From Thermoproteota archaeon (lineage in GTDB: Archaea > Thermoproteota > Methanomethylicia > Methanomethylicales > Methanomethylicaceae), in contig JARXPF010000001.1 of NCBI GenBank assembly GCA_029887765.1, positions 194,378 to 258,377 on the forward strand: a stretch of 64,000 bases of DNA, read 5' to 3'. The notes beneath the pieces were generated by a model. The model saw only the letters and a list, made by a program, of their open reading frames with translations. It made no database searches and had not been told where the DNA came from. The position numbers and the translations under genes are program-made. Of this stretch, positions 9,711 through 60,589 are shown piece after piece. Each line of letters begins with the position of its first letter. The stretch's first letter is position 1.

Positions 9711-10880
9711 TTACTGTCTTTTTAAAATTTTCATTATAATATCCAAAGGAGCGTCTGTTTTAAAACCTTTTGGATTAAAATGAGTTCTACTTGCTTTAAA
9801 TCCAGCTTCTTTTAATTTTTCAATAATAAAAGAAATAGGAGGGGGAGATATTTTTATTCTACTACAAATTTTATCAACAAGAAAATAAGTAATAGGCATT
9901 TCACTTTCTTCAAGAAGTAAGTTTATTAATTTTTTAATTCTCTTATGTGTATTAAATTCTAAAATATTTTGATTATTCATTGAAATTAAAAATTCTTTAT
10001 TAATAAGTTTTCCAAGCCATAAAGGTCCAGCTCTTTTTACTTCAAATGAACAATATGGACACTCATTTATAATACGTTCATTTAATAAAGCTGAATCTCT
10101 CCAACCACATTTTTCACAATAAAATATATATCCCAAAAAAGAGGCAGAGTTATCTGCTTTCTTAGCACTTAAATCAAGCTTAACATATGCTCTAAAGTAG
10201 TGATCTACACTATAAGAAAGTATTACATCAATTCCAAAGTCATGCTTAATAGATGCTTGAACAATGCTTCCTAAAAGAATTCTTAAACCAATTTCATGAC
10301 AAAAATCAGTTTTAATAGATATAGCACCATATTTTCTAAAACATGCTTTTTGATAAACTCCACAAAGTGGAGCTGTGTCAGTTGCAGTTACTGCTAATAT
10401 GCCCCCATTTTTAATTGCTTTAATTGATGCATCTAAAAAATTAATTGGAGATCCAAATGGATCTAAATCTATAAAATCAAATCTTTCATTATGTTTTGAA
10501 TGTTCAATTAATAGTAAATTTGCATCCTTACATTCAATTTTTACAATATTTTCAAGATTATTAATTTTTACATTTTGAACAATAATTGGAATTGCGAATT
10601 TATTTAAATCATTAACAATGCAATTACTTACTCCTTTAACTTCTTTTGCATATCTTATTCCTCTAGCACCAACTCCTGCTAATGGATCGCATATAATTAA
10701 ATCATTTTTCTTATTTGAAATTTCTCTTAATACCATAACACCAATATCTCTACTAAATTCCATTTTTGGATTATAAAAAACAATTGCCCTTGATGGATCA
10801 TAACTACCTTTTCTAGCATATTCAGAAAAATCTGGAACTATAAGTGTAGTAATACCTTCTTTTACTTGAATTAATCGCAA
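9711..10880 (-). CDS. trm1: tRNA (guanine26-N2)-dimethyltransferase
   Basis: 389 aa, Trm1 N-terminus and ICDPLAGVGARGIRYA SAM motif. Confidence 0.8.
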   Translation of the reverse strand: MRLIQVKEGITTLIVPDFSEYARKGSYDPSRAIVFYNPKMEFSRDIGVMVLREISNKKNDLIICDPLAGVGARGIRYAKEVKGVSNCIVNDLNKFAIPIIVQNVKINNLENIVKIECKDANLLLIEHSKHNERFDFIDLDPFGSPINFLDASIKAIKNGGILAVTATDTAPLCGVYQKACFRKYGAISIKTDFCHEIGLRILLGSIVQASIKHDFGIDVILSYSVDHYFRAYVKLDLSAKKADNSASFLGYIFYCEKCGWRDSALLNERIINECPYCSFEVKRAGPLWLGKLINKEFLISMNNQNILEFNTHKRIKKLINLLLEESEMPITYFLVDKICSRIKISPPPISFIIEKLKEAGFKASRTHFNPKGFKTDAPLDIIMKILKRQ

Positions 10881-13063: not shown

Positions 13064-13489
13064 TTAAACTATTGATTCAGAAAATTTGTAACCAAAAGTA
13101 ATAAGAGATGGAAATTTTCCTATAAGCTCAATAATCTCTGGTAAAAATATGAATTTATCAGTTTCTTCTTTTTTTAATACTCTATTTATTACAGCTATTT
13201 CTAATGGATTGCCTAAGATTGTAAAAACTCCTCTTTTACTCCCAGATTCTTTCACTATAACTATAGGTAAATTAACATATTTACATTCTTCTTCAGATAA
13301 ATAAGAAGAAAGCTCTTTAAGTTCATTTTTATTAAAAGATACTTTCTCATTTGCCATATTTATATAATGAGGATCTTCTTCAATTAATAAATTACTTAAT
13401 GGCTTTCTAGTTTTAGGAAGATTTTCATTTAATCTTTTTAATTCTATTTCCCAAAAAAGTTTTGTTAATCTATCTTCTTCATTCATCAT
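13064..13489 (-). CDS. hypothetical protein upstream of fibrillarin/Nop5
   Basis: 141 aa, no motif; overlaps the fibrillarin stop. Confidence 0.3.
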   Translation of the reverse strand: MMNEEDRLTKLFWEIELKRLNENLPKTRKPLSNLLIEEDPHYINMANEKVSFNKNELKELSSYLSEEECKYVNLPIVIVKESGSKRGVFTILGNPLEIAVINRVLKKEETDKFIFLPEIIELIGKFPSLITFGYKFSESIV

Positions 13490-14172
13490 GTAAACTCTCC
13501 TAAAACCATTGCATGATCTTTGTCAAAAGGATCCAATCTTTTTACATCTAAAACTCTTATACCTCCATCTTCCATAATTTTTATTTCTTTTTTAAAAATC
13601 TCTGTAGGTTCTTTTGTAACGTCAATACTTCTAGCTTTTATTGCAATCATGACTTTTCCTTTTTTTCTTAAATAATATTCAGCATTATCTATCAAAATAT
13701 TAGCTTGATCTGGTTGTGCAACATCACAATATATTACATCTACTATTTCAACAAATGTTCTATAGGAAGAAGGAATTCTAGCATCTGCTAATATAGGAAT
13801 CATATTTTTTCGTAATTTAGAAACTTCTATAAGTTCTTTCATAACTCTTGGAGAAAATTCAATGCAAAATATTTTTCCTTTTTCACCAATAATGTCAGAA
13901 ACATGACTTGCAGTTGTTCCACTTGCTGCACCTAAATATAAAATACGTGTACCTTCTTTTATTGGAATTTCAATTATTCCTTTCTCTATAGAAGCTGCAA
14001 GTTTGCTTCTAAAAGGATCCCAAGCTCTATATTCTTCATCTTTAAATCTATATAATTGTTCTCCATACACTCTAATTCCAGGAGTTAAATTTTTAGTAGC
14101 TAATCTTTCAATAGTTTCATCTTCCACTATGTATATATTAGAAAATTTTGGATGTGATTTTACATTTACCAT
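13486..14172 (-). CDS. flpA: fibrillarin (rRNA/tRNA 2'-O-methyltransferase)
   Basis: VLYLGAASGTTASHVSDI SAM motif, 228 aa. Confidence 0.9.
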   Translation of the reverse strand: MVNVKSHPKFSNIYIVEDETIERLATKNLTPGIRVYGEQLYRFKDEEYRAWDPFRSKLAASIEKGIIEIPIKEGTRILYLGAASGTTASHVSDIIGEKGKIFCIEFSPRVMKELIEVSKLRKNMIPILADARIPSSYRTFVEIVDVIYCDVAQPDQANILIDNAEYYLRKKGKVMIAIKARSIDVTKEPTEIFKKEIKIMEDGGIRVLDVKRLDPFDKDHAMVLGEFT

Positions 14173-14178
14173 AAATTA

Positions 14179-15348
14179 TCACTTCTTCTTTTTTAATTTT
14201 TTAGTTGGTACTGCATATTTCTTCTTTATTTCACTTATTCTTTCCTCTAATTCTTTTTTTAATTTATTTGCAATAAAAGCACCACCAAAAGCATCAACCC
14301 TTGCAGCAATAGACAGCTTTCCTGCAAGCGTCCTTGCAATTTTTCCTCTTTGCCACTTAGGAGATGAATGAATTAATGGACTTTGGAAAATTATACCATG
14401 TTTTGGAGGCCTAGCACCAGTTCTTAGTGCTCTAAATAAAGCTTTCTCAGCACCTAATACTTGTATTGTACTTGCAGGTTTTTTAGCAAGAGCTTCTAAT
14501 CCTCCACTTAATGCAATTAATCTTGCGCCAAGAATTGATCCTACTAATTCTCTTACATTAGGAGCCACTTCCTTCATTACTTCATCAATATATTTCTCAA
14601 GAGATTCTCTATAAGAGTATAAGTTTAAACAAATTCTTGCTAATTCTTGAATTTTTTCCACATCTTTTTCTCTAATTTCAGCACCTATAGATTTCTCCAA
14701 AAGTTCCATTATTGTTTTTGATTTATTTTCATTATGAATAATTTCTTCTAATAAATTAAATTTATAATTAGATCTTTCACCAAATTCACTTACAATTTTA
14801 AGATAAGTTTTATGATCTTGAATTAAATCTCCAAGCTCAGGAAAATGAAGGCCGTACCATTCTCTTACTCTAGAAACCAATATATTTATAATTTTTTCAA
14901 CTTCATCAAGAGAAGTTACAGCTTGAGCTACTAATTTATCTCTTTTTTCAAATGCTAAACGTATTTTTGTTTTAGTAAGTAGTTCTGCTACTTCTTTTTG
15001 TACTTTTATTAAAAAAGAGTTATCAAAACCTATTTTAGACCATTCTCCAATAGGGTCTATTCTAAAAGCCCTCCCTGCAGCACTTGGAGAAATTACATTA
15101 AATTGAAGATTAAATTTAGATTTCAAAGCCATGGCTTCTTTTTCATTCTCAACAATTACTGTATCATAACCAAAATTTGAGATTTCTTTTATAAGATCTT
15201 CTAATAATGAACAAGTCCCTGTTCTTTCTAATTCTAATAACTGTAAAGTAGCTTCATTAGTATCTTTAAAATTTTTAGTAGTAATTATTTTTAAATCTTC
15301 ATCATAAGCAATAAATCCATAAAAACTATCTACTATATAGCACTTCAA
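14179..15348 (-). CDS. nop5: C/D box snoRNP protein Nop5/Nop56
   Basis: 389 aa with coiled-coil and NOP domains, adjacent to fibrillarin. Confidence 0.85.
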   Translation of the reverse strand: MKCYIVDSFYGFIAYDEDLKIITTKNFKDTNEATLQLLELERTGTCSLLEDLIKEISNFGYDTVIVENEKEAMALKSKFNLQFNVISPSAAGRAFRIDPIGEWSKIGFDNSFLIKVQKEVAELLTKTKIRLAFEKRDKLVAQAVTSLDEVEKIINILVSRVREWYGLHFPELGDLIQDHKTYLKIVSEFGERSNYKFNLLEEIIHNENKSKTIMELLEKSIGAEIREKDVEKIQELARICLNLYSYRESLEKYIDEVMKEVAPNVRELVGSILGARLIALSGGLEALAKKPASTIQVLGAEKALFRALRTGARPPKHGIIFQSPLIHSSPKWQRGKIARTLAGKLSIAARVDAFGGAFIANKLKKELEERISEIKKKYAVPTKKLKKKK

Positions 15349-15396: not shown

Positions 15397-15999
15397 TTAT
15401 TTCCAATATCCTTTACATATTAAATATATTTCTGAACTATGTATTCTAGAAGCTTTTGGCTTATATAATTTAACATAATTAAACATTCCTCTTATTTCTT
15501 TTAATAAATTATTAAATTCTGAGCCCATAATTATTTTCATTAATGCATTTCCATTTTTCTTAAGAAGTATAGGAAAAAGTGAGATTATATATTTTGAAAT
15601 AGCAATTTGTCTTGCATGATCCAATTCATGAATTCCTGTAAATTTAGGAGCAATATCAGAAAGTATGACATCTACAGGTCCATTTGATAATTCAATAATT
15701 TTTTTAATAATATTCGAGTCTCTAATATCGCCTTTTATAAAAAATACATTTTCATAATCTAATGGATGAATTTGTGAAATATCAATTCCTATAACTTTTC
15801 CTTTTTCGCCCACAATGCTTCTTGCTACTTGAAGCCAACCTCCTGGTGCTGCTCCTAAATCTAATACTACATCTCCTTCTTTTATAATATGATAGCGATT
15901 TGAGATTTCTAATAGTTTTAGAGCTGCTCTAGATCTAAATCCTAATCTTTTAGCTTCTCTATAATAAGAGTCTCTAAGTATTTTCACTCTTATTTTCAC
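15397..15999 (-). CDS. rrmJ: rRNA (uridine-2'-O)-methyltransferase RrmJ/FtsJ
   Basis: RSRAALKLLEI...DLGAAPGGWLQ. Confidence 0.8.
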   Translation of the reverse strand: MKIRVKILRDSYYREAKRLGFRSRAALKLLEISNRYHIIKEGDVVLDLGAAPGGWLQVARSIVGEKGKVIGIDISQIHPLDYENVFFIKGDIRDSNIIKKIIELSNGPVDVILSDIAPKFTGIHELDHARQIAISKYIISLFPILLKKNGNALMKIIMGSEFNNLLKEIRGMFNYVKLYKPKASRIHSSEIYLICKGYWK

Positions 16000-16389: not shown

Positions 16390-17322
16390 TTATAAATATA
16401 TCTCCAAATTAAGCTTTTCCAAAAGTTCCTTGTATCTATTTCTAACAGTAACTTCAGTAACACCTGCTGCATTTGCTATATCTTTTTGAGTTCTTTTTTT
16501 ATCCATAAGTATACTTGCAATATATATAGCAGCAGCTGCAATACCTATTGGTCCTTTTCCTGAAGTTAAACCAGCATTATATGCTGATTTTATAATTTCT
16601 ATAGACTTCTTTTGAACAGATCCATCTAAGTATAGCTTAGATATAAGACGAGGAATATAACTGATTGGATCTGTTGGAAGAACTTTTAACATAAGTTCAT
16701 TAGATAAGAATCTAAAACTTCTTGCAATTTCTTTTTTATTTGCCCTACATACTTTTGAAATCTCATCCAAAGTTATTGGTATGTTATGTTGCCTACATGC
16801 AATATACAATACAGCACCAGTAACACCCTCTATGGATCTACCACGTACAAGTTGATTTTCAACAGCTTTTCTATAAATAAGAGCTGAAGTTTCTTGTACA
16901 TTTCTAGAAAGACCAAGTTGAGAAATCATACGTTCTAATTCTGAAAGAGCAAAAGCCAGATTTCTCTCTGATGCATCAGAAACTCTTATTCTTCTTTGCC
17001 ATTTTCTAAGTCTATATATTTGAGCACGTTTTTTCGATGTTAATAATTTTCCATGACCATCTTTATCTCTCCAATCTATTACAGTAGACAATCCTTTATC
17101 ATGAATTGTCAATGTGAGTGGTGCTCCAGTTCTTGATCTTTTTTCTTTTTGCTCATTATTAAAAACACGCCATTCAGGACCAAAATCTACTAATTTATCA
17201 CTTATTACAAGACCACAATATTTACATGTAATTTCTGCTCTATCTTGATCTATTATTAGTGATTTATTTTTACATTCAGGACAAACTAAATCATCAAGAT
17301 TAATTTGAAAATCTTCTATCAT
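16390..17322 (-). CDS. tfb: transcription initiation factor IIB
   Basis: N-terminal Zn ribbon (CPECKN..CKYCG) plus two cyclin repeats, 310 aa. Confidence 0.9.
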
Positions 17323-17587
17323 TCTTTTTTCCTCCTAATTTTTTTAAAAAAATAGGAATACCAACTATTTCATCTTTATTCAAATTTCGTGAAGGCTTTA
17401 TTAAAGCATATGGATTTGCAACAGGTCCAAAGATATCTATGATAATTCCTAGTTTTCTTCCATCCTTAAGATATACAAATGATCCTAATTTTGGTGGAAT
17501 TTTTATTCTTGCAAGAATTAAATTGCTTTTAGAAATACTGAGAACTTGCCCTATTTCACTCAGTACATCATTGTGAGAAGATCTCAT
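17300..17587 (-). CDS. gar1: H/ACA RNP protein Gar1
   Basis: 95 aa, [35 protein letters not shown] Gar1 pattern. Confidence 0.7.
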
Positions 17588-18001: not shown

Positions 18002-18292
18002 TTAAGGTCTATGTTTTCTATTTTTCCTTATTATTTCACAAATTTTAATAAGTAATTTTAGTTTTTTATCAGATTTTTTAACTAATACTCTTCCAGATTT
18101 ATCCCAAGGAGTTCTAGGAAAAGCCTTATTTTTTTCAATTAAAACATCTAATCCAAGTTCTTTACATGCATTTAAAATTTCTTCAATAGATGGAGATTCT
18201 ACAGCTATTTTCTTTGATACTTTTCTACCCTCATTTCTTGAAAGAGAAGAATTAATATATGATGGCCAAATAACAATGTATTCTTTTTCCAT
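18002..18292 (-). CDS. srp19: signal recognition particle protein SRP19
   Basis: 96 aa, MEKEYIVIWPSYINSSLSRNEGRKV SRP19 N-terminus. Confidence 0.75.
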   Translation of the reverse strand: MEKEYIVIWPSYINSSLSRNEGRKVSKKIAVESPSIEEILNACKELGLDVLIEKNKAFPRTPWDKSGRVLVKKSDKKLKLLIKICEIIRKNRKHRP

Positions 18293-27979: not shown

Positions 27980-28849
27980 ATGATAGTAATTTATGGACCC
28001 TCTTCATTAAAATTAGGAGAAAGAGTAGCAAATCAACTTAATGTTAAAGGTTTAAAGATAGATCATAAAATTTTTCCTGATGGTGAGTCTTATATAAGAA
28101 TTCCTGAAAATATTGTAGGAGAAGATATTGTATTAATACATTCAACTTATCCAAATCAAGATAAGAGAATTATTGAATTATTGCTTACAATAGATGCTTT
28201 AAGAGATTTAGGGGCTAAGAGTATAAAAGTAATTGTTCCATATCTTGCTTATGCTAGACAAGATAGTAGATTTAGAGATGGAGAAGCCATTAGTATAAAT
28301 ACTATATTAAAATTAATAGAGAAAATAGGAGCAGATGAATTTTTAACTATAGATATTCATAAAGAACATTCTTTAAATATTTTAAAAATAAAAGCAAAAA
28401 ATATTATGGCAATAGATGCTATAGCTGATTTTTTAAAAAAAATAGACTTAGATACACCATTTATTTTATCTCCAGATAAAGGAGGATTAGAAAGAGCGAA
28501 ATTATTAGGAGAAAAATTAGGATTAGAATATGGATATTTTGAAAAAATAAGAGATAGAATTAGTGGAGCTATTACTATGAAAGGAAAGGAAGTTGATTTT
28601 AATAATAGAGATGTAATTATAATTGATGATGTTATAAGTACTGGAGGAACAATAGCTTCAGCATGTAAAATTGCTAAAGAAAGAAGAGCAAAAAAAGTTA
28701 TTGCTATATGTACTCATGCTCTATTAATTAATAATGCTGTAGAAAGAATGAAATTATCTGGAATAGATGATATTATTGCAACAGATACTGTAGAAGGAGA
28801 ATATAGTAAAATTTCAGTTGCTCAACTTATAGCAAGGGAATTAAAGTGA
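27980..28849 (+). CDS. prs: ribose-phosphate pyrophosphokinase
   Basis: 289 aa, IIDDVISTGGT PRPP-binding loop. Confidence 0.85.
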   Translation: MIVIYGPSSLKLGERVANQLNVKGLKIDHKIFPDGESYIRIPENIVGEDIVLIHSTYPNQDKRIIELLLTIDALRDLGAKSIKVIVPYLAYARQDSRFRDGEAISINTILKLIEKIGADEFLTIDIHKEHSLNILKIKAKNIMAIDAIADFLKKIDLDTPFILSPDKGGLERAKLLGEKLGLEYGYFEKIRDRISGAITMKGKEVDFNNRDVIIIDDVISTGGTIASACKIAKERRAKKVIAICTHALLINNAVERMKLSGIDDIIATDTVEGEYSKISVAQLIARELK

Positions 28850-29871
28850 TTGCCATACTTTTATCAGGAGAACATCCATCAATTCCATATTCTGAAGTTC
28901 ATGCTATATTAAAAGCAGAAGGTATGGAATTTACTGAAATTAATAGATTTAATCAATTAATGATAATTAATGCAAAAAAAGAAGTATGTGAAATATTAAA
29001 AGAAAGAGGGGCATATATTATAGAAGGAGGAGAATTTTTATTTTCTTCTAAACCTTCTATAGATTTTTTAATAAAAGAATGTGAAAAAATTGATTGGAGT
29101 TTAATAAAAGGAAAAAGTTTTGGAGTTAGAGTTTCTAGAGTAAAAGGATTTTGGAGAGAAATATCTTCAATAGAAATAGAGAAAATTGTAGGGGGAATTA
29201 TTAAAAAAAATTCAGACTCTAGAGTAAATTTAGAAAATCCAGATATTTGGATAAGAGGAATTATAACTGATGGTGGAATTTTCTTTTATAAATGTGACTT
29301 TAGAGTAAATAGAAAATCTTTTTATCTTAGACGTCCAAGAAAGAGACCATTCTTTCATCCAGGAGTTTTAGATGTTAAACTTTCAAGAGCTTTTGTTAAT
29401 TTATGTAGAATTAAGAAAGGTGAAATATTTCTTGATCCATTTTGTGGAACTGGAGGATTTTTAATAGAAGCTGCAATGATGGGTATGAAAGCTTATGGAT
29501 TAGATTTAGATGAAAAAATGATTCTAGGTGCAAGAAAGAATTTAAATTATTATAAACTTGATGTAGAATTAATATTAGGTGATGCTAGAAATTTACCAAT
29601 AAATAAAGTAGATGGAATATCAACTGATCCTCCATATGGTAGAGGAACTTCAACTAAAGGAAGCAATATAAAGGATATATTAAATAAATTCCTTGATGAA
29701 GCTTATAGAGTTTTAAAAAATAATAGATATATGTGCATTGCTGCACCTAAAGAAATAGAAATTCAAGAAATAATAAAATTAAAAGGTTATGAAATTCAAG
29801 AAATTCATATAATGAAAGTTCATAAATCTTTAACAAGATCTATATTAGTTGTGAAAAAATATGAATGCTAA
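28846..29871 (+). CDS. trm11: THUMP-domain tRNA (guanine10-N2)-methyltransferase
   Basis: N-terminal THUMP-like region, DPFCGTGGFLIEAA SAM motif, DPPYG. Confidence 0.7.
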   Translation: MIAILLSGEHPSIPYSEVHAILKAEGMEFTEINRFNQLMIINAKKEVCEILKERGAYIIEGGEFLFSSKPSIDFLIKECEKIDWSLIKGKSFGVRVSRVKGFWREISSIEIEKIVGGIIKKNSDSRVNLENPDIWIRGIITDGGIFFYKCDFRVNRKSFYLRRPRKRPFFHPGVLDVKLSRAFVNLCRIKKGEIFLDPFCGTGGFLIEAAMMGMKAYGLDLDEKMILGARKNLNYYKLDVELILGDARNLPINKVDGISTDPPYGRGTSTKGSNIKDILNKFLDEAYRVLKNNRYMCIAAPKEIEIQEIIKLKGYEIQEIHIMKVHKSLTRSILVVKKYEC

Positions 29872-30772
29872 AGTAATAATTTTAGGTTCAGCTGGTGGAC
29901 TTCCTACATCTGAAAGAGGATTACCAGCAATACTTATTGAATATAATGGTGAATTAATATTAATGGATTGTGGAGAAGGTACTCAAAGACAAATAATGAA
30001 AGCAGGATATAGTTTATGTAGAAAAATGAAAATATTCATCACTCATTTACATGGCGATCATATTTTTGGATTACCAGGAATAATACAAAGTATGAATTTA
30101 CTCAATAGAATTCATCCTCTTGAATTATATGGACCAAAAGGGCTTAAAGAGTTTATATATGAAGTTGTGGGAATTGCTAAATGTGAACCTAGTTTTAACT
30201 TAATAGTTAAAGAAATATCAGAAGGAGAAATTCTTTCTTCAAAATATATTAAAGTTTATGGGATTAAAACTGAACATTCTAGAGAAAATATAGCATATAG
30301 CATAATTCTTGGTGGTAGTATTGGAAGATTTTTACCAAATAAAGCAAAAGAACTTGGCATACCTGAAGGTCCACTTTGGGGTATGTTAAAATCTGGAAAA
30401 TCAATTATACTTGAAAATGGAAGAATAATAGAACCTAAGGAAGTTTTAGGAGAGCCTATTCCTGGTATTAAAATAGTATATACTGGAGATACAAGGTATT
30501 GTGAAAAAATAATAGATTTTGCTAATGAAGCAGATTTACTTATACATGAGGCTACATTTGCATCAGATCTTGCAAATAGAGCTTATGAAGAAGGACATTC
30601 TACAGCAGAAGATGCTGCTAAAATAGCTAAAGCTGCAAAAGTAAAAAAATTAGTAATGACGCATATAAGTAGTAGATACAAAGATGCAAAAATTCATGAA
30701 GAAGAAGCAAGAAAAATTTTTGAAAATTCAGAATTTGCAGAAGATTTTAAAACCTATGATTTAAAGAGTTGA
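29861..30772 (+). CDS. rnz: ribonuclease Z (tRNA 3' endonuclease)
   Basis: HLHGDH metallo-beta-lactamase motif, 303 aa. Confidence 0.85.
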   Translation: MNAKVIILGSAGGLPTSERGLPAILIEYNGELILMDCGEGTQRQIMKAGYSLCRKMKIFITHLHGDHIFGLPGIIQSMNLLNRIHPLELYGPKGLKEFIYEVVGIAKCEPSFNLIVKEISEGEILSSKYIKVYGIKTEHSRENIAYSIILGGSIGRFLPNKAKELGIPEGPLWGMLKSGKSIILENGRIIEPKEVLGEPIPGIKIVYTGDTRYCEKIIDFANEADLLIHEATFASDLANRAYEEGHSTAEDAAKIAKAAKVKKLVMTHISSRYKDAKIHEEEARKIFENSEFAEDFKTYDLKS

Positions 30773-31524
30773 AGTGCTTTTTTATAAGATAATATTGCAT
30801 CATTTAATGTATTATTTTCTACAACTGCATATATGCTATTTAAAGAAAATTTTGATTTTATAAGTTGCCAATTAACATTTCCATCTCCAATTACTCTATG
30901 TTCATCTTCAATTCCATAATTATCATGAAGATGTAAATGAATAATTCTATCTCTAAATTCAATTAAAAATTTTTCAAGTTGAGAAGAAGTATTTGCATGA
31001 CCTACATCTAATACAATATCTGGAGAAAGACCATTTTCAATAAGTTCATGGAATTCTTCTACATTTTGTAAAAAACAACGAGTTCCTGCTGGCATATTCT
31101 CTATTGCTACTTTAATTCCTAAATCTTCTCCATAATCTAGAATTTTTCTTAATGATTCTATATTTAGATATCTATTTAAATTTGGAACAATATTTTCTAA
31201 AGGAGTGCTCAAACCTGGATGAATAACAAATATTTCAGCATTAATAGCATTTGCCATTTCCATAGAATTCATTATTATTTTAATAGAAGTCTTTCTTATA
31301 GAATCATTAGAAGCTGCAATATTTATATCTAAAATTGGAGAATGTACTGTATATTTTATATTTGTAGTATTTTTTATTTCATTCAAAATTTTAATTTTAC
31401 TTTTTGTAAGTTTATCTTCCCAATCATCTAAAATTTCTAGAATCTCTATACCTATAGAAGTTAATTCATTAATTATTTGGAATGTTTTTCCAATTGTACA
31501 TAATGTGGATATTCCAATTGGCAT
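30754..31524 (-). CDS. sugar phosphate isomerase/epimerase (xylose-isomerase-like TIM barrel)
   Basis: VIHPG..IENMP..HLHLHDN pattern. Confidence 0.55.
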   Translation of the reverse strand: MPIGISTLCTIGKTFQIINELTSIGIEILEILDDWEDKLTKSKIKILNEIKNTTNIKYTVHSPILDINIAASNDSIRKTSIKIIMNSMEMANAINAEIFVIHPGLSTPLENIVPNLNRYLNIESLRKILDYGEDLGIKVAIENMPAGTRCFLQNVEEFHELIENGLSPDIVLDVGHANTSSQLEKFLIEFRDRIIHLHLHDNYGIEDEHRVIGDGNVNWQLIKSKFSLNSIYAVVENNTLNDAILSYKKALQLFKS

Positions 31525-31940
31525 ATTTCATCAACAGGCACTCCGCCTATAGTTTTTGTTGCAAGCCAATCTATTAATTCCTTTATATTTTCAGTCCAAA
31601 TATGAAAAGTTATCGGACCTAATGGTGATTCTCCTTCTGGTTTACAAAAACTTATTTTTCCTACATAAGCCACTTGTCTATTTACATGAAAAGTAATTGT
31701 TTTATTATCTATTCCTTGTATTATTATTTTTCTTGCAGCATCTAGTATTCTTTCTTTTCTTAATAATTCTCTAAATTTTATAAGTAATGATTCATCACCC
31801 TCTTGAACAATATATTCTAAATTACCTTCTTTTTCTTTTCTATAATTCTCCGCACCAGTTAAGTTTGCAATAGCTTTTAAAAGTTTAAATTCATCTTCAG
31901 TTGGATTTAATTTAGCTCTTACAATAACTTTTGCTTTCAA
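31473..31940 (-). CDS. UPF0201/DUF54-like putative RNA-binding protein
   Basis: 155 aa; size and its pairing with the next gene match the archaeal UPF0201-UPF0200 pair. Confidence 0.45.
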   Translation of the reverse strand: MKAKVIVRAKLNPTEDEFKLLKAIANLTGAENYRKEKEGNLEYIVQEGDESLLIKFRELLRKERILDAARKIIIQGIDNKTITFHVNRQVAYVGKISFCKPEGESPLGPITFHIWTENIKELIDWLATKTIGGVPVDEICQLEYPHYVQLEKHSK

Positions 31941-32469
31941 ACAACTCCCTCTTAAAAAATTCTTTTGACTTATCTATTAATTCTTCTATTGTTCCTTCAT
32001 TAACAAACATAACATCAGCTAAAGCTATTACTGCACCTATTCCTATTTTTATTTCTCTCATATCTCTTTCTATAAATTCTTCAAAATTTTTAGGATCATC
32101 TGCTCTTCCTCTTTTAATTAAACGTTTAAATCTAGTAGAAGGAGATGCATGAACTGCAATTAAAAACACATCAGCAATTTTTTTAAAAAAATTCAATTCT
32201 TCTAAACTTCTAATACCTTCTATTATAGCTATATCATTATTTGATAAATTTTGAATACATCTTTTTGCTATTGCATCAGGACCTTCTTCTTTTCTAAGAT
32301 TAAGCATTAACTCTCCAAGTGCTTCTGGAGATTCCTTAATTCCCCTTCTCCTTGCTTCTTCTCTAATAACATCGCCCATTACAATTACTTTAAACCCCAT
32401 TGATTTTGCAACATTAGCTACTATAGATTTTCCTGCTCCTGGCATTCCTGTTATACAGAATAATTTCAT
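31912..32469 (-). CDS. P-loop nucleotide kinase, UPF0200/adenylate-kinase-like
   Basis: ITGMPGAGKS Walker A, 185 aa. Confidence 0.55.
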   Translation of the reverse strand: MKLFCITGMPGAGKSIVANVAKSMGFKVIVMGDVIREEARRRGIKESPEALGELMLNLRKEEGPDAIAKRCIQNLSNNDIAIIEGIRSLEELNFFKKIADVFLIAVHASPSTRFKRLIKRGRADDPKNFEEFIERDMREIKIGIGAVIALADVMFVNEGTIEELIDKSKEFFKRELFESKSYCKS

Positions 32470-32516
32470 GCAAGAGATTATTTATAAGCAAAAATATAAC
32501 CATATCTGGTGATTAT

Positions 32517-33074
32517 ATGGAATTTGTAAGAAGTTTCATTGCTATAGAGTTAGATGAAGATGTAAAAAATAAAATTATGGAATTTGAAAATAGATTAAAA
32601 GAATGTAAATCAGAAATGAAGTTTGTTGAAAAAGAAAATTTACATATAACTATAAAATTTCTTGGTGAAATAAATATGAAATTATTAGAAAATATTTATG
32701 AAGAAATTGAAAAAATAAAAGAAGAAAAATTTACAATAAGTGTAAAAGGAGTAGGTGTATTTCCTAATGAAAGGTTTATGAGAGTAATATGGGTTGGAGT
32801 AGAAGAAGGAAAAGATAAAATTTTAAAAATTCAAAAAGAAATTGAGGAAAAATTATTAAAATTTGGTTTTTCAAAAGAAAAAGATTTTATTCCTCATATA
32901 ACTGTAGCAAGAGTGAAATCAGTAAGTAATAGAAATGAAATTTTAAAAATTTTTGAAGAATTTAAAGAGAAAAATTTTGGAAAATCATTAATAGATAGAA
33001 TTACTTTAAAGAAAAGTATACTTACACCAAAAGGCCCGATATATTCAAATTTAAAAGAGGTGTTTTTTAGATAA
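32517..33074 (+). CDS. ligT: 2'-5' RNA ligase / 2H phosphoesterase LigT
   Basis: Two HxT/S motifs (HITIKFLG, HITVARV). Confidence 0.75.
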   Translation: MEFVRSFIAIELDEDVKNKIMEFENRLKECKSEMKFVEKENLHITIKFLGEINMKLLENIYEEIEKIKEEKFTISVKGVGVFPNERFMRVIWVGVEEGKDKILKIQKEIEEKLLKFGFSKEKDFIPHITVARVKSVSNRNEILKIFEEFKEKNFGKSLIDRITLKKSILTPKGPIYSNLKEVFFR

Positions 33075-34444
33075 TGAAAGAAATATTAGAAGAGGTATTG
33101 AAAAGAGTAAAACCAAAAGATGAAGATTTTATAAAAATAGAAAAAATATTTGAAAAAATTAAAAATAGAATTATCCAAAAAGCTGAAGAATTAGGAATAA
33201 ATGTTAAAGTAGAAATAGAAGGTTCTATAGCAAAAGGGACTTGGCTTTCTAATGATAAAGATATTGATATATTTATAGTATTTCCATTAGGAACAAAAAT
33301 TGAATTTGCTAAAGAAATTGGATTAGAGCTTGCAAAATATGGTGTTGAAGAAAATTGGAAATTAGGTTATGCTGAACATCCATATATTGAGGCAAAAGTT
33401 AATGATTATAAAATTGAAATAGTGCCTAGTATTGAAATGAGAGAAGGAGAGAGACCACTTACAGCTGTAGATAGAACACCATTACATACAATTTTTATAA
33501 AAAGTAAAATGAATGAAGAAATGAAAGATGAAGTAAGATTATTGAAACAATTTATGAAAGGTATAGGAGTATATGGTGCTGAATTAAAAATAGGAGGATT
33601 TTCAGGATATCTTTGTGAACTCCTTATACTATATTATGGAAGTTTTGAAGAAACTATAAAAAATGCTGCAAAATGGAAACCAAAAACTGTAATAGATTAT
33701 ATGAAGTATTACAGTAATGAAGAATTATGTAAAAAAATATTTGATAGTCCATTAATAGTAATTGATCCTATTGATATGAGAAGAAATGTTGCAGCTGCAG
33801 TAACATTACAATCTTATTCAACTTTTATAGCAGCTTCTAAATATTTTTTAAAAAAACCAAATATTGATTTTTTCTTTCCAAAAGAATTTGAAGTAAAATC
33901 AGAAGATATATTTAATGAATTAAAGAAAAGAGGTACAAATATAGCAATAATAAAAATTAATTGTCCAAAAATTCCTCCAGATATTCTTTGGGGAGAAATT
34001 AATAGAACTTTAAATAAATGTGTTAAACTTTTAGAATCTTATGATTTTCAAGTCTTAGATTATAAAGCTTGGAGTGATGAAGAAAATAATATTTTTTTAA
34101 TTATGGAATTGGAAAGAGATAAGTTAAGAAATGGAAAAATTCATTATGGACCAAAAATATGGTGGGATGAAGAAAAATTTTTAAATAAACATTTAGAAAA
34201 AGCTCTTGCAGGACCTTATATAAAAAATGAAAGATGGTATGTTGAAGTAAAGAGAAAATATACTACAGTAAGAGATTTATTAATAAATGAATTTGGAAAA
34301 CTTCAATTAAGTAAAGATATAATGAATGAAGTTAAAAAAGGATTTTCAGTTTATATAAATGAAGAGATAGGAAAAGAACTTAATCCTGAATTTGCAAAGG
34401 ATTTATTAAAATTTTTAAAAAAGAGACCATTATGGTTGAATTAA
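33074..34444 (+). CDS. cca: CCA-adding tRNA nucleotidyltransferase (archaeal class I)
   Basis: 456 aa, GSIAKGTWLSNDKDIDIF nucleotidyltransferase motif; 1-nt overlap with ligT. Confidence 0.85.
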   Translation: MKEILEEVLKRVKPKDEDFIKIEKIFEKIKNRIIQKAEELGINVKVEIEGSIAKGTWLSNDKDIDIFIVFPLGTKIEFAKEIGLELAKYGVEENWKLGYAEHPYIEAKVNDYKIEIVPSIEMREGERPLTAVDRTPLHTIFIKSKMNEEMKDEVRLLKQFMKGIGVYGAELKIGGFSGYLCELLILYYGSFEETIKNAAKWKPKTVIDYMKYYSNEELCKKIFDSPLIVIDPIDMRRNVAAAVTLQSYSTFIAASKYFLKKPNIDFFFPKEFEVKSEDIFNELKKRGTNIAIIKINCPKIPPDILWGEINRTLNKCVKLLESYDFQVLDYKAWSDEENNIFLIMELERDKLRNGKIHYGPKIWWDEEKFLNKHLEKALAGPYIKNERWYVEVKRKYTTVRDLLINEFGKLQLSKDIMNEVKKGFSVYINEEIGKELNPEFAKDLLKFLKKRPLWLN

Positions 34445-42324: not shown

Positions 42325-42998
42325 AGAAAATTTTCCTATTTTTGAAATATGAGTTGCAATGATGAAGTTTGCATAATGAAGTTTATCCTTGGAGTTGTAA
42401 ATTGTTCTCAGTGCAGTAATTAAATTGGCTTAACATTATTGAAGAAGTGTCTAAAGGATTTATAATAAGCCGAAGTCCAAAACCATTAATTAAAATCAAT
42501 TAGCTCGGTCTTTTTAAGAATTTAATGACTACTAGATAGCATTTAGGGCTATTTGACTAAAAGTTGCTAAGATTTTTATCTAATACTATAGGATATAGTT
42601 AATGTGGTCCCCTTAGATAAGCTATATGCGGCTTGAGGTCTGTCTAGTCTTTCTACTCCTGACTTTTGTTGCATGACTTCACGAGGCTTATTTAAGTAGT
42701 ATATTTCGTGGTTTTAGTTTCAAAACATTCATGATGCTCGTAACTCTACTTGTCATAATCTTATCGAGTTTTAGGATTTACGATCTCCTGCTCAGAAGCT
42801 TTACGTTGGAGCTCAGTATTTATCTTACTCACAGTAGTCTCAATCATAATGTCAGTAGCTCTGGGCATAGCTGTCGCTGCTGGGCATAATTCTAGGTCTT
42901 CGTTGGGCTTGGCTTTTTTTAGGGGCTATATGCAGTCTAGGCTTAATGAGAAGCGTTGACGGAGGCTCGTCTTTAAGGTCTGGAAAGTCGATTATGGA

Positions 42999-43265
42999 AT
43001 GAGTTTACCTCTAACCTCTGTAATCTTCGCTCTGATAAACATAGTCAATTACTGGAGTCCAATTACATCAAGGTGGGAGATAGCTTGGTGGATGTCCATA
43101 CATATCTTAGCATACTTCGCCTTCAGATACTTAGCCGAGGCTATAAGGGAGACATTAGACATTTATACTTCAGCTTCACTACATGAAGGCGTAATGAGTG
43201 CTTATACGTTTCTATCCATTTATACAAGCAAATTGATCCTGAATATCAGTCTATTCATCAACTGA
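42999..43265 (+). pseudogene. membrane-protein gene remnant inside the GC-richer segment
   Basis: 88-aa hydrophobic ORF. Short hydrophobic ORF fragments in other frames lie upstream (about 42733-42990). Confidence 0.3.
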
Positions 43266-43571
43266 TTCATCTTCTTCTACCTTCTAACCATCTTCTTCCA
43301 TGAATATGAAAGCCATGACTATGAATCTAAAGAAAGTAGCCCTCCTTGTATATTAAGAGTCAAAAATGGAAGTTATAATTAATGTGTAAAAATATTTGAG
43401 AACATCCATTATAAGTGAATCTATGAATAAAGAGCTTCCATATTCTTTAATATAATTGTAATTATATAGAACAATTAATTATATTTCCATTAACATAATA
43501 CTCTCAAATAAGCTTAATTTATAAAGACTGTTACTCTAGAAAAACTTAAATGTTTATCAAGAAGTAATTTT

Positions 43572-44429
43572 TTGGGGCTTAAAGATTTGGCACTAGACGT
43601 AGATGAAATAAATAGTATTATAAGAATTCTTGTTCTATTAAGTGTTAAGAAGAATTGTGAATGTGATATTGAGGTATTAAAGCATAAGATTGAAAAATTC
43701 ATAGACTGTCCTCGTTGTGTAGATCGCAAAGAATTTGAGGAGACTCTAAATGAGCTTTTAGCTAAGGGTCTGATAGAGAGAAAGGGAGGGAAAATATCCC
43801 TAACAGAAAGGGGGCATTATATAAGCGAGGAATTGAAAAACGTACTTTTTAAAGACGAGCCCGTTCTGGAGGTTGTGGCTGGACTTACAGATGGTTCTAT
43901 AACAGCGCTCATAGTAACGCTATCTACATTTCTAGCAGGATTGAGCTCTTCACTTACGATTTTCACAGCTACCCTTACTTTGTCAGCAGTGGCAATTACC
44001 AATTTCTCAAGCTTCATACTTGGAGGTAAGACTGAAGATCTAGCAGATTTGATTTCACTAAAAAAACTAATGGAATATAGCACTGAAGGTATAGAGGATA
44101 GTGTAGAACGCAATAAATCTCTTATCTTATTAAGGCGATTATTTGATGTCTTGAAAAAAGAAATTAATAAATCAAATATATATTCTGCATTTATTTGTAG
44201 TTTAACAACTTTTCTTTCTGGTATTATTCCAATAGCCCTTTTCTTATTAATACCCCCACCTTTTGGAATAATCGCTTCTTTAATATTCGTTGGAATTACA
44301 ATAGGAGTGTTTCTAGTTCGTTATAGATCAAAGAAGATGAATATTCGATGGTGGATAACACTCATGGAAACTCTTTCTCTAGTTATAATATCTGTAATAG
44401 TTTCGCTCTTATTAGGAGGAATAACATAA
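43572..44429 (+). CDS. VIT1/CCC1-family Fe/Mn transporter with N-terminal Cys4/wHTH-like domain
   Basis: EVVAGLTDGSITALIVTLS VIT1 signature and TM helices; extra N-terminal CEC..CPRC plus LIERKGGKISLTERG. Codon usage is G/C-richer than the host. TTG start. Confidence 0.6.
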   Translation: MGLKDLALDVDEINSIIRILVLLSVKKNCECDIEVLKHKIEKFIDCPRCVDRKEFEETLNELLAKGLIERKGGKISLTERGHYISEELKNVLFKDEPVLEVVAGLTDGSITALIVTLSTFLAGLSSSLTIFTATLTLSAVAITNFSSFILGGKTEDLADLISLKKLMEYSTEGIEDSVERNKSLILLRRLFDVLKKEINKSNIYSAFICSLTTFLSGIIPIALFLLIPPPFGIIASLIFVGITIGVFLVRYRSKKMNIRWWITLMETLSLVIISVIVSLLLGGIT

Positions 44430-44676
44430 AATCCTTGAAAGTAAACATATGCTTAGCTATCATGGAAACTATGATTAAAAAATACTTAATGAATATTCTA
44501 TAAATTAATTTTATCAATTGATGTCAAAAACATTATCCACTTAGCATAAAATTCAGCTTAATAACAAAATCATGAATCTGTTTATATTGGTTAGATTAAT
44601 AAAAAATTAAATTTATCAATAAGAGAATAGCTAGGCTTAAATAAAATTTTGTTGTATTTTGCTATGCCGGAAGAGT

Positions 44677-44769
44677 GGCCCGGGTAAGATTATAAAATCC
44701 CCGAAGGGTAGTGGTTATCCCGGGGGCCTGTGGAGCCCCAGTTCGCGGGTTCGATCCCCGCCCCGGGCC
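44677..44769 (+). tRNA. tRNA-His (anticodon GUG) with encoded G-1 and an extra roughly 19-nt insert after position 9 (putative non-canonical intron)
   Basis: G-1 then GCCCGGG acceptor, T-arm GCGGG-TTCGATC-CCCGC, anticodon stem GGGGC/GCCCC with loop CTGTGGA, 3' CCCGGGC plus discriminator C. The insert is 44687-44705. An 8-bp leader/trailer stem gccggaag/cttccggc lies at 44666-73 and 44781-88. Confidence 0.65.
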
Positions 44770-44788
44770 CTCGCAACCACCTTCCGGC

Positions 44789-45868
44789 TCATATTTTAAT
44801 TAATTTATATTCTCTAGAACCATATCCTAGTTTTTCCAAAGTAATTATTTGAATTCTACTATTTGTTCCATTAATTTTTCCTAAAGGATCAGGAGGAGTT
44901 ATGCCAAGGTTAGGAAAAATAGGGCTTTCATCAATTAAATCTAATGATGCTTCATCTATGGCTACTGGATCCTTAGATGCTAATATTCCAATATTTTGAG
45001 TAATAATATTCCCAGCTGGAGTGGCACAATCACAGAGTGGAGTAATATCAATAAGAAAATTCATGAAAAATATAGGCTTATTTTTTAATCCTTTAAGTAC
45101 TCCAGAAGCAGCATATGCTAAAGCTTCTTGAAATCTCTCTTTACCATTTTCAAATATTGTTATTGCATTTTGATCACATGAAAACATACAATTTCCACAA
45201 TACATACACTTATTTTCATCTCTTTTAGGCATTCCATTTTTCATAGATATTGCTGAAAAAGCACATGCCATTATGCATTTACCACAATTATTACATTTTT
45301 CATATTGAAAAACAATTCCATGAGCTGCATGTTGATCTCTTTTACTTATTTTTGTTGTACAACCCATTGCTAAATTCTTAATAGCTCCTCCAAATCCTGA
45401 AAGCAAATGTCCCTTCACATGACTTACTATTATTAATCCATCTGCATTAAAAATAGCTTTTGCAATTCTTATTTTATTCATAAAAGGAGATTCTATTTCA
45501 ATATCAATTCCATCTTCTCCATAAGGTCCATCAGCTACTATTATAGGACATGACAAACCTTCTTCAGTAAAACCATTATATTTTGCTGTTTCCAATACTT
45601 CTTTTTCATCTCTTCTAAATCCCGTAGGATATAAAGCAGTAGTTTCAGTTATAAAAGGCTTCATTTTAAAATCCTTAAGAAAATCAACTATTTTTCTAAT
45701 AAAAAATGGTCTAATATATGTATAATTACCTCTTTCACCAATATGTACTTTTATAGCAATTTTAGATTCAGGATTAAAATATTGAATAAAATGACTTAGT
45801 AATTCATCCATTCCTTTTATTATATCTTTATTTTCTCTAAAGTCTAAGAAATAAACTTCAGATTTCAT
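44789..45868 (-). CDS. DUF362-domain Fe-S protein with 2x[4Fe-4S] ferredoxin domain
   Basis: CNNCGKCIMAC..CMYCGNCMFSC. Confidence 0.55.
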   Translation of the reverse strand: MKSEVYFLDFRENKDIIKGMDELLSHFIQYFNPESKIAIKVHIGERGNYTYIRPFFIRKIVDFLKDFKMKPFITETTALYPTGFRRDEKEVLETAKYNGFTEEGLSCPIIVADGPYGEDGIDIEIESPFMNKIRIAKAIFNADGLIIVSHVKGHLLSGFGGAIKNLAMGCTTKISKRDQHAAHGIVFQYEKCNNCGKCIMACAFSAISMKNGMPKRDENKCMYCGNCMFSCDQNAITIFENGKERFQEALAYAASGVLKGLKNKPIFFMNFLIDITPLCDCATPAGNIITQNIGILASKDPVAIDEASLDLIDESPIFPNLGITPPDPLGKINGTNSRIQIITLEKLGYGSREYKLIKI

Positions 45869-45919: not shown

Positions 45920-46417
45920 ATGGGAATGGTAATAATAACTGTTCCAAGTAATAAAGAAGAAAGAGCAAAAATTGAAATTTTAGATTGTATTTTTCCTAAA
46001 GATTATGAAGCTAAATTTATTGAACATAAATATCCTGGATTATTAATATTAGAATCAAAAAAACTTTCTTCAGATGAAATATTAAAATTATTAGAAGAAT
46101 GCCCAACTGCTTATATTTATAAAATAATTCCAGTTGATGATATTGTAGAATCAAATTTAAATTCTATAATAAAAAAAATTGAAGAATTATTAAAAAATAA
46201 AAAAGGAAAAATAAAAGTTGATTGTAAAAAAAGAGGAAGTATAATAAAGTCAAGTCATGAAGTAGAAATATTAGTAGGAAATTTTTTAAAAAAATTAGGA
46301 TTCATAATTGACTTAAAAAATCCAGACTTTATTATAGTTATAAATATAATTGATGAATGGACTGCTATTTCCTTTGGTCCTCCAAAGAGATTCATTGATA
46401 AAAGAATTCATAAATAA
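45920..46417 (+). CDS. THUMP-domain RNA-binding protein
   Basis: 165 aa, matches the archaeal stand-alone THUMP size and pattern. Confidence 0.5.
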   Translation: MGMVIITVPSNKEERAKIEILDCIFPKDYEAKFIEHKYPGLLILESKKLSSDEILKLLEECPTAYIYKIIPVDDIVESNLNSIIKKIEELLKNKKGKIKVDCKKRGSIIKSSHEVEILVGNFLKKLGFIIDLKNPDFIIVINIIDEWTAISFGPPKRFIDKRIHK

Positions 46418-60495: not shown

Positions 60496-60589
60496 GCGGC
60501 CGTAGTCTAGCATGGTCTAGGACGTCGGCCTTCCATGGATAGCCCGAAGAACGCCGAGGACCCGGGTTCAAATCCCGGCGGCCGCACCA
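60496..60589 (+). tRNA. tRNA-Gly (anticodon UCC) with canonical 16-nt intron after position 37; CCA encoded
   Basis: Acceptor GCGGCCG/CGGCCGC, anticodon stem TCGGC/GCCGA, loop CTTCCA, intron at 60536-60551, T-arm CCGGG-TTCAAAT-CCCGG. Confidence 0.8.

Follow-up and report, generated by a model that had tools for sequence, protein, structure and literature searches.

Here we describe a tRNA-His(GUG) gene in a 64,000-nucleotide stretch of DNA (the window; contig JARXPF010000001.1, positions 194,378 to 258,377) from a metagenome-assembled genome (MAG) of the family Methanomethylicaceae, class Methanomethylicia. The gene hosts 19 additional nucleotides between tRNA positions 9 and 10, and its leader and trailer carry complementary arms that can close a helix around the whole precursor (Table 1). 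The 19 nucleotides are very probably an intron of the bulge-helix-bulge (BHB) kind. We regard it as an even call whether the overall account given below, an intron-split tRNA-His with flanks that aid splicing, is correct. The window has a G+C content of 27% and its sole G+C islands are four tRNAs and two coding stretches, with no further tRNA-like island within it. The other three tRNAs are tRNA-Glu, tRNA-Pro and tRNA-Trp, leaving this gene as the sole tRNA-His. The hallmarks of that isoacceptor, a GUG anticodon and an extra G-1 opposite C73, are present and are invariant in all relatives. The convergent neighbour is a gene for a DUF362 Fe-S protein (44789-45868), whose stop codon (44789-91) directly follows the trailer arm, and a TTTT run comes next (44794-97).

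Tools for tRNA detection stumble on this gene, as expected from its interruption. ARAGORN, proposed as a check in a first-pass annotation that was made from the sequence alone, reports the unspliced gene as a tRNA-His with a false 5′ end (44699-44770). The Rfam tRNA model matches positions 7-64 only, with 38.6 bits, and the three other tRNAs are matched over their full length with 58-63 bits. Once the 19 nucleotides are removed, ARAGORN folds the remaining 74 nucleotides into a perfect tRNA-His(GUG) with an 8-bp acceptor stem that includes G-1:C73.

In order to place the gene in its evolutionary context we collected 26 distinct tRNA-His genes with their flanks (L numbers below) from synteny look-ups, a scan of reference genomes and one metagenome scan. 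The query for the reference genomes was the invariant 3′ part of the tRNA-His; it matched 21 genomes, each of them once, and all are Methanomethylicia or labelled as close relatives. The 26 genes derive from these 21 genomes and from other contigs, and three extra metagenome variants come on top. Every species compared has one copy of the locus, in conserved synteny, and the tRNA-His region is 100% identical among six same-species contigs. The DUF362 gene has sequence-identical copies on contigs of several MAGs (e.g. GCA_038888335.1), and its homologues are labelled Candidatus Methanomethylicaceae or Methanomethylicia, formerly ‘Verstraetearchaeota’. Below, the subclade comprises the window, L009, L029, the L007/L040/L041/L037/L038 group and L023/L042, and the remaining loci are referred to as outgroups.

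A local minimum free energy (MFE) fold, combined with analysis by hand, places the ends of the insert in a BHB. The 5′ bulge is U8-A9-A (44685-87) and the 3′ bulge is A-A-G10 (44704-06), each of 3 nucleotides. The central helix of 4 bp joins C4-G7 (44681-84) to the CCCG of the intron (44700-03), the outer helix of 3 bp joins G1C2C3 to G11G12U13 with one G-U pair, and the inner helix of 4 bp joins GAUU (44688-91) to AAUC (44696-99) around the loop AUAA (44692-95). The intron contributes one A (44687) as the third base of the 5′ bulge and two (44704-05) as the first bases of the 3′ bulge. From the canonical 37/38 case described in one review (PMC4090602) we derive the rule that the cut falls after the second base of each bulge. 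Applied here (UA^A and AA^G, where ^ marks the cut), this rule excises exactly 44687-44705. The local MFE has the same helices with a centre of 3 bp, in a register of nearly equal energy; a correct tRNA results from the 4-bp register only.

The relatives confirm that this site is old. An insert of 14-27 nucleotides lies at the same junction in 26/26 parsed distinct genes and in the three extra variants. The junction consensus is GGGU[A/U]^A...CCCGA[A/U]^GGGUAG, with bulges U[A/U]A and A[A/U]G and an invariant CCCG. Most outgroup genera (Methanosuratincola, Methanomethylicus and others) have inserts of 23-27 nucleotides with an inner helix of 6-8 bp. These inner helices covary freely (GGUAGC/GCUACC, GGUAACC/GGUUACC, GGCAGCC/GGCUGCC, GGCUGC/GCAGCC, GGAAGCUU/AAGCUUCC and GGAAACC/GGUUUCC), and RNAalifold counts 8 double changes at one pair. 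In the subclade the intron is reduced to 14-19 nucleotides and the canonical intron at 37/38 has been lost; the inner helix has only 0-2 bp in the sister species L007, L009, L023 and L029, which makes the motif bulge-helix-loop-like.

Paired bulges, flanking helices, a restored cloverleaf and conserved junctions are all found, as in other archaeal BHB introns. We consider it highly likely that the 19 nucleotides are an intron, with a BHB of the kind that the archaeal splicing endonuclease cuts. Judging from these sequences, the 9/10 site is ancient and is fixed across the class Methanomethylicia in one isoacceptor; the intron belongs to a known class, and its site is unusual. The first-pass annotation had located the cloverleaf parts, the insert and the complementary flanks correctly. 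Its reading of 44687-44705 as an intron at a non-canonical position turns out to be right to the base, and the fold that it proposed looking for at the insert boundaries is indeed a BHB, at a site shared by the whole class and with a covarying inner helix. The counter-case that it had raised, an enlarged D-loop without a BHB, fails on the presence of the BHB and on the varying length of the insert between fixed junctions. More generally, that the nucleotides are retained in an enlarged D-region, or that the gene is a pseudogene, is scarcely plausible: the exon sequence is as invariant as the junctions, this is the sole tRNA-His found in each matched genome, and splicing restores a perfect cloverleaf.

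A canonical 37/38 intron of 15-17 nucleotides (CUGUGG^CGCG..GCGCAGA.^AGCC) coexists with the 9/10 intron in most Methanomethylicia tRNA-His genes (L011, L012, L014, L017-L022, L024-L028 and L030-L036). The two-intron form is also that of the complete Methanosuratincola genomes CP130488.1 and CP186953.1. In its intron mode, ARAGORN labels such two-intron genes as Arg, Leu, Ala, Ser or Tyr with long introns (among them L020 3998-4123, L033 7620-7745, L034 3161-3285, L031 4749-4871 and L022 1997-2120), and without the intron search it finds no tRNA at those loci. This is a hazard for annotation: genomes of the Methanomethylicia, a class related to methanogens, can seem to be without a tRNA-His.

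Table 1. Features of the tRNA-His locus, followed by genes with roles in RNA maturation or modification and their neighbours elsewhere in the window
Feature	Position in window	Strand	Remarks
Putative TATA-like promoter element CTTAAATA	44636..44643	+	Conserved position in five subclade species
Leader arm of bracket helix GCCGGAAG (gccggaag)	44666..44673	+	Perfectly complementary to 44781-88
Leader spacer AGU, U-2 at 44676	44674..44676	+	U-2 directly 5′ of expected 5′ processing site
5′ exon: G-1 (44677), G1-G7 GCCCGGG (44678-84), U8 A9 (44685-86)	44677..44686	+	
Predicted 19-nt intron agattataaaatccccgaa, between positions 9 and 10	44687..44705	+	BHB geometry, cloverleaf restored, conserved site
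3′ exon, G10 to C73	44706..44769	+	CCA not encoded
D-arm; anticodon GUG	from 44706; 44730-32	+	In 3′ exon
T-arm GCGGG-TTCGATC-CCCGC; acceptor 3′ strand CCCGGGC; discriminator C73	44745-61; 44762-68; 44769	+	
Trailer spacer CUCGCAACCAC	44770..44780	+	First three bases CUC, invariant across class
Trailer arm of bracket helix CUUCCGGC (cttccggc; CTTCCGGC)	44781..44788	+	Complementary to leader arm
ProRS	7599-9041		Upstream of 9714-18292 gene group
Trm1	9714-10880		
Fibrillarin and Nop5	13489-15348		
FtsJ-like methyltransferase	15400-15999		
TFB	16393-17322		
Gar1	17303-17587		
SRP19	18005-18292		
THUMP + UPF0020 methyltransferase (Trm11/Trm14-like)	28846-29868		tRNA/RNA-maturation cluster 28846-34441
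Metallo-beta-lactamase of tRNase Z size	29861-30769		Same cluster
PF01877 RNA-binding protein	31476-31940		Same cluster
LigT-like 2′,3′-cyclic phosphodiesterase	32517-33071		Same cluster
Archaeal CCA-adding enzyme	33074-34441		Same cluster

The second feature of the locus is the bracket helix. The perfect 8-bp complementarity of gccggaag and cttccggc, noticed in the first-pass annotation, holds and is kept in the sister species by means of compensatory changes. The leader/trailer duplex has an energy of -16.4 kcal/mol, which is reached by 22 of 19,870 equally spaced 25-mer pairs from the window (p ~0.001), and the CCAC of the trailer spacer can lengthen the bracket by pairing with GUGG at 44675-78. 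There is no comparable bracket on the tRNA-Glu, tRNA-Pro or tRNA-Trp of the window. The sister species have helices in the same place with other sequences: CUGGAGGGU/ACCCUCCAG in L009, CUGGAGGGC/GCCCUCCAG in L029, and GCUGGAG/CUCCAGC in the L007 and L023 groups. We counted covariation on ungapped mini-constructs; a full MAFFT alignment scattered the helix registers through an indel in the 3′ spacer. All cells pair (35/35), and compensatory double changes are found at 3 of 10 pairs (C:G to U:A, A:U to G:C and U:A to C:G), in L009, L029 and the L007 group. Slid registers of the same constructs have none. All five subclade species also have a TATA-like box (CTTAAATA or CTTATATA) 30-32 nucleotides before the first G of the leader helix, which fits the usual archaeal distance from TATA box to transcription start. 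Given this conserved spacing, the leader arm probably forms the very start of the transcript. From these comparisons we are confident that the leader/trailer helix is real and under selection.

Could the arms be an inverted repeat without any RNA function, for example a chance match, a relic of acquisition, a terminator for DUF362 or the terminal inverted repeats of a mobile element? By length alone, a perfect match of at least 8 nucleotides occurs in about 2% of comparable window pairs, because the genome is AT-rich. The trailer arm also abuts the stop codon of the neighbouring gene, and in L009 and L029 it repeats the 3′ end of the tRNA (GCCCUC / ACCCUC), suggesting an origin by duplication. 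That said, such a repeat would not be expected to show three compensatory double changes that are confined to the proper register, at a locus that is single-copy and syntenic in all species, nor to keep pairing despite the relocation of its partner site. About 105 nucleotides separate the arms, and a terminator scan with a bacterial model, which is uninformative for an archaeon, gave no terminator-like hairpin. We consider this explanation very unlikely indeed.

The first-pass annotation had further suggested that the extended helix could present a BHB to the splicing endonuclease, or mark a permuted precursor. Neither idea survives. In the window the bracket closes an internal loop of 3 x 11 nucleotides (3 on the 5′ side, 11 on the 3′ side). 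Among species the 5′ spacer ranges from 2 to 5 nucleotides (UU, AU, AGU, GAGU, GU, GGU, GGGU, GGGGU), and the L007 and L023 groups have their trailer arm immediately behind C73, with no 3′ spacer or bulge; the 5′ spacer of the L007 group measures 3-5 nucleotides. A check by hand of every register in the window, L007 and L009 found no two 3-nucleotide bulges 4 bp apart in the bracket. The variable spacers and the missing paired bulges rule out the bracket as a BHB processing stem. A permuted or split gene is likewise ruled out; the gene order is normal, and G-1 to C73 are colinear once the intron is removed.

A relaxed variant of this idea is that the leader helix and the acceptor stem together make a half-BHB, at which the splicing endonuclease would cut between U-2 and G-1 and no RNase P would be needed. 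The L007 leader can pair up to C73 with exactly G-U-G(-1) bulged, and a cut after the second bulge base would leave a 5′ end at G-1. Crenarchaeal-type enzymes do cut relaxed motifs, according to passages in two papers (PMC4090602, PMC3241643). However, the spacer between helix and G-1 is not fixed, a matching 3-nucleotide bulge 4 bp away on the 3′ strand never occurs (the window has its 11-nucleotide loop there), and the outgroups have no such helix. This makes the variant very unlikely.

The outgroups, which have no long leader/trailer helix, carry a conserved leader element, G[A/G]GGGC[C/U], followed by 3-5 nucleotides and GU. This element is complementary to the whole 3′ acceptor strand and the first three trailer bases over 11-12 bp, at -20 to -26 kcal/mol (e.g. 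UGAGGGCCU-GG with CC-GGGCCCUCA). The trailer begins with CUC right after C73 in 26/26 genes, and the bases beyond it vary. The leader variants GAGGGCCUAGG, GGGGGCCUGAGG, GGGGGCUCGAGG and GAGGGCCCAAUU can all still pair with the invariant G69-C76; their changes are C/U swaps opposite G69 and G70 and an A-to-G change opposite U75. Across the 26 tRNA-His genes the predicted energy of the leader with its own 3′ strand and trailer is -21.7 +/- 2.2 kcal/mol, vs -5.0 +/- 2.3 kcal/mol for 7 other tRNAs, a control set that was cleaned of tRNA-His genes miscalled by the intron mode of ARAGORN.

Some outgroup leaders (L012, L017, L036, L011, L018, L031 and L032) also host a small hairpin about 20-35 nucleotides upstream of G-1, before the GAGGGCC element. 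Its sequence varies and its pairing is kept (CUCCCU/AGGGAG, CUCCC/GGGAG, GCCC/GGGC, CUCC/GGAG). Because of this hairpin, these leaders are about 30 nucleotides long and structured.

The leader of the subclade (GCUGGAGGG...) looks homologous to the outgroup element. The bracket of the L007 group still overlaps C72 and C73. In L009 and L029 the trailer arm (ACCCUCCAG / GCCCUCCAG) repeats the tRNA's own 3′ end together with the start of the trailer, and the L007 group has the same trailer sequence without the 14 nucleotides between the two CUC copies. This suggests that the separate bracket arose by a short downstream duplication of the partner site, or else was collapsed by a deletion. The resulting series would run from two introns and a leader that mimics the acceptor strand, through a mini-intron with an overlapping leader/trailer helix, to a mini-intron with a separate bracket. 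The bracket is one part of a flank complementarity that is specific to tRNA-His and spans the class, and whose role we infer below.

An intron whose BHB draws on the acceptor strand is not cleavable as long as the precursor is a cloverleaf. How, then, does the precursor reach a fold that can be cut? Because the central BHB helix takes C4-G7 and the outer helix takes G1-C3, the splice-competent fold excludes the acceptor stem. The BHB needs the 5′ acceptor strand off its normal partner, so the precursor must visit a non-cloverleaf fold. We propose that the flanks make this fold reachable and hold the short 5′ exon of 10 nucleotides to the rest of the molecule. The precursor would be about 130 nucleotides long, from about 44666 to the T-run after 44788. 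In the outgroups, the leader would mimic the 5′ acceptor strand and pair with the displaced 3′ acceptor strand and the CUC of the trailer. In the lineage of the window, the partner of the leader would have shifted to a dedicated trailer segment, giving the bracket helix. Cutting and ligation would follow, presumably by EndA and RtcB, after which the cloverleaf would be the stable fold. Next, RNase P would presumably trim the leader after U-2 and keep G-1, the trailer would be removed after C73, and CCA would be added; these last steps are assumed from general knowledge.

Constrained folding gives this proposal some backing. In all species, removal of the flanks leaves the BHB fold 6.6-13.5 kcal/mol less favourable than the cloverleaf, and with the native flanks the gap is -3.9 to +9.0 kcal/mol. 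The modelled outgroup structure has both BHBs and the T-arm in place, with the leader on the 3′ acceptor strand. We also compared native with shuffled flanks in 12 species. Shuffled flanks did as well in 1/150 cases for each of L011, L012 and L022, and in 2/150 for L029, 3/150 for L032, 5/150 for L009 and 6/150 for the window. Within the subclade, the flanks strengthen the binding of the cut pieces to one another by 1.9-4.3 kcal/mol at 70 °C. On these models, assistance by the flanks in splicing the acceptor-proximal intron is the most likely function, although we put it forward tentatively and with a little less than even confidence.

A number of results weigh against the proposal. The covariation of the bracket comes from 4 distinct helix sequences, and its score is attained in 20/500 shuffles, which makes this control a weak one. 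With n = 7, the other tRNAs form a small control set. The conformer shift is no better than with shuffled flanks in L007 (45/150), L023 (93/150), L020 (29/150), L014 and L036 (15/150 each), and RNAalifold on the outgroup precursors favours the ordinary acceptor stem over the pairing of leader and 3′ strand. At 37 °C the flanks do not strengthen the net binding of the cut pieces, and in the outgroups they fail to do so at 70 °C as well. In the window, L009 and L029 the bracket is compatible with either fold, and alone it does not force the BHB fold. Finally, every functional step described here is inferred. The modelling backs a stabilization of the splicing-competent fold by the flanks only partly.

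Three related ideas were tried and set aside. A pure tether is contradicted by the missing gain in binding at 37 °C and in the outgroups at 70 °C, and we keep it as a minor high-temperature effect in the subclade. A pure conformer switch behaves like shuffled flanks in 5/12 species and is not chosen by RNAalifold. The constrained folds also hinted that, once the D-arm is freed, the trailer spacer pairs with it (in the window as AACCAC/GUGGUU, in L009 and L029 as GGAUA/UAUCC), but this is not significant, being equalled by 205, 84 and 201 of 2000 shuffles. A more specific form of the splicing proposal is that the leader is an in-built RNA chaperone: as a mimic of the 5′ acceptor strand, it would transiently hold the 3′ strand and free the 5′ strand for the BHB. 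We offer this as speculation that is somewhat unlikely to hold.

The flank pairing may also have a purpose in which the intron is incidental, namely to define the 5′ end through an extended acceptor helix, with RNase P cutting between U-2 and G-1 and thereby sparing the histidine-specific G-1. The 9/10 intron and the flank pairing are confounded, as every sampled tRNA-His gene has both. The pairing is specific to tRNA-His, and 26/26 parsed genes share U-2, which directly precedes the expected cut. Bacterial RNase P prefers a U immediately before its cut. Beside G-1:C73, the GAG or GGG of the leader can pair with the invariant CUC of the trailer. In the window, GAG (44673-75) can do so with CUC (44770-72) around a bulged U-2, and the same leader bases have stronger competing partners; RNAalifold adds two leader/CUC pairs in the outgroups. 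In yeast nuclear pre-tRNAs, leader and trailer have been described to pair around a bulged cleavage site. However, the complementarity of the outgroup leader extends over the entire 3′ acceptor strand, and pairing over these 11-12 bp would destroy the substrate of RNase P. Nor does a G+C-rich helix of 8-9 bp, placed 11 nucleotides from the 3′ side of the acceptor in the window, L009 and L029, have an obvious role in site selection. We regard this explanation as unlikely.

Likewise, the bracket may be a general stabilizer that closes both ends of a thermophile's precursor and guards them against exonucleases or thermal unfolding until processing, independently of the intron. A G+C-rich helix that begins at the probable transcription start would suit this purpose in a genome of 27% G+C, and at 70 °C it strengthens the hold between the two ends by 2-4 kcal/mol in the subclade. 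The other tRNAs of the same genomes do without a bracket, though, and in the outgroups the partner is the acceptor strand itself, such that the ends are not closed in the cloverleaf fold. A role of this kind is quite improbable.

Should the link between flanks and splicing hold, some disrupted tRNA genes would have to be defined with their flanking sequence included. The chaperone form of it, if true, would imply a programmed switch of folds, in which splicing precedes end-trimming and aminoacylation, and which the lineage of the window has rewired into a leader/trailer clamp. Were this general, acceptor-proximal tRNA introns could be expected to come with conserved flanks, and the flanks of archaeal pre-tRNAs would be functionally informative.

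The window hosts further genes for RNA processing (Table 1). A Pfam survey of all 73 window open reading frames (ORFs) found no EndA, RtcB or RNase P subunit. Part of a review describes broad-specificity (alpha-beta)2-like endonucleases as usual in the relatives of Methanomethylicia, a Thermoproteota-related class (PMC4090602). The genes between 9714 and 18292 form a dense group for RNA modification and ribonucleoproteins. Near the tRNA-His locus, a stand-alone THUMP-domain protein of about 165 amino acids is encoded at 45920-46417 (+), and is found in the same position in L001-L015; the order Cdc6 - (AIRS) - THUMP - (CorA) - DUF362 - tRNA-His is kept across the class. THUMP domains of known enzymes bind tRNA acceptor regions.

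The remaining tRNAs of the window also deserve a comment. The distance from tRNA-Glu(CUC) to tRNA-His is about 100 nucleotides in L007 and L023 (L007 5153-5251) vs 2.3 kb in the window (42325-44665). The 2.3-kb stretch hosts a 285-amino-acid ORF without a Pfam match (43572-44429) and an 88-amino-acid ORF, and looks like an insertion between two tRNA genes. tRNA-Trp(CCA), at 60496-60589, has an insert of about 18 nucleotides in the anticodon region. Its CCA end is encoded, as is that of tRNA-Glu, and the CCA end is absent from the tRNA-His and tRNA-Pro genes.

How does this gene compare with known systems? Non-canonical BHB and bulge-helix-loop introns were reportedly described in Crenarchaeota, Thermoproteales, Thaumarchaeota and related archaea by Marck and Grosjean in 2003 and Sugahara et al. 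in 2008. That BHB, hBH, HBh′ and BHL introns occur at many positions, several per gene, and are cut by crenarchaeal-type endonucleases is established in the parts of the literature that we draw on (PMC4090602, PMC4033280, PMC3241643, PMC3218864). tRNAscan-SE 2.0 models non-canonical introns, with 60 nucleotides of flank (PMC8450103). Like these introns, ours is short, presumably spliced by protein, located outside 37/38 and bounded by 3-nucleotide bulges on either side of a 4-bp helix, and in the outgroups it coexists with a canonical intron in the same gene. The shrunken inner helix of the sister species resembles the bulge-helix-loop forms cleaved by the EndA of A. pernix (PMC3241643). The 9/10 site is absent from the positions named in the running text of one review (3/4, 20/21, 22/23, 25/26, 29/30, 30/31, 45/46, 53/54, 56/57 and 59/60), its full position map aside. 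Unlike those introns, ours is fixed in one isoacceptor across Methanomethylicia, draws its BHB from the acceptor strand and comes with conserved complementary flanks. A literature search of limited scope returned no description of a leader that pairs with an acceptor strand displaced by an intron BHB, and no discussion of how a precursor with an acceptor-strand BHB reaches a fold that can be cut. The conserved flank pairing appears to be undescribed. The finding is a modest one: introns of this class, their enzymes and, as a general idea, complementary flanks are already known.

The split tRNA genes of Nanoarchaeum equitans were reportedly first described by Randau et al. in 2005. These split tRNAs, which include tRNA-His and therefore the same isoacceptor, also have G+C-rich complementary sequences outside the mature tRNA, and these are said in part of a review to hold the segments together for endonuclease and ligase (PMC4090602). 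There, as far as the review text goes, 37/38 is the site of a junction in trans between two separate genes, whose leader and trailer make up the stem of a BHB and are removed by the endonuclease; here there is one colinear gene, and the helix joins the ends of the precursor far from the splice sites and without a BHB. Pairing between leader and trailer within a single transcript is also known from permuted tRNA genes (Cyanidioschyzon merolae, Thermofilum pendens; PMC3218864, PMC3978253). The 3′ half comes first in those genes, the helix carries a BHB and the intermediate is circular, whereas our gene has the normal order and no BHB in the bracket.

Long-range flank helices that exist in the primary transcript only are also known from the processing stems of archaeal 16S and 23S rRNAs, which contain a BHB cut by the endonuclease (PMC7714728). 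The bracket is similar in its placement, but has 8-10 bp and no BHB.

Lastly, in eukaryotic nuclear pre-tRNAs, leader/trailer pairing extends the acceptor stem for RNase P. The likeness is in the pairing of leader and trailer beside the acceptor with an unpaired cleavage site, which in our case would be GAG/CUC with the bulged U-2. Unlike the eukaryotic pairing, that of the Methanomethylicia is much longer, is G+C-rich, occurs on one tRNA only, and in the outgroups competes with the acceptor stem.

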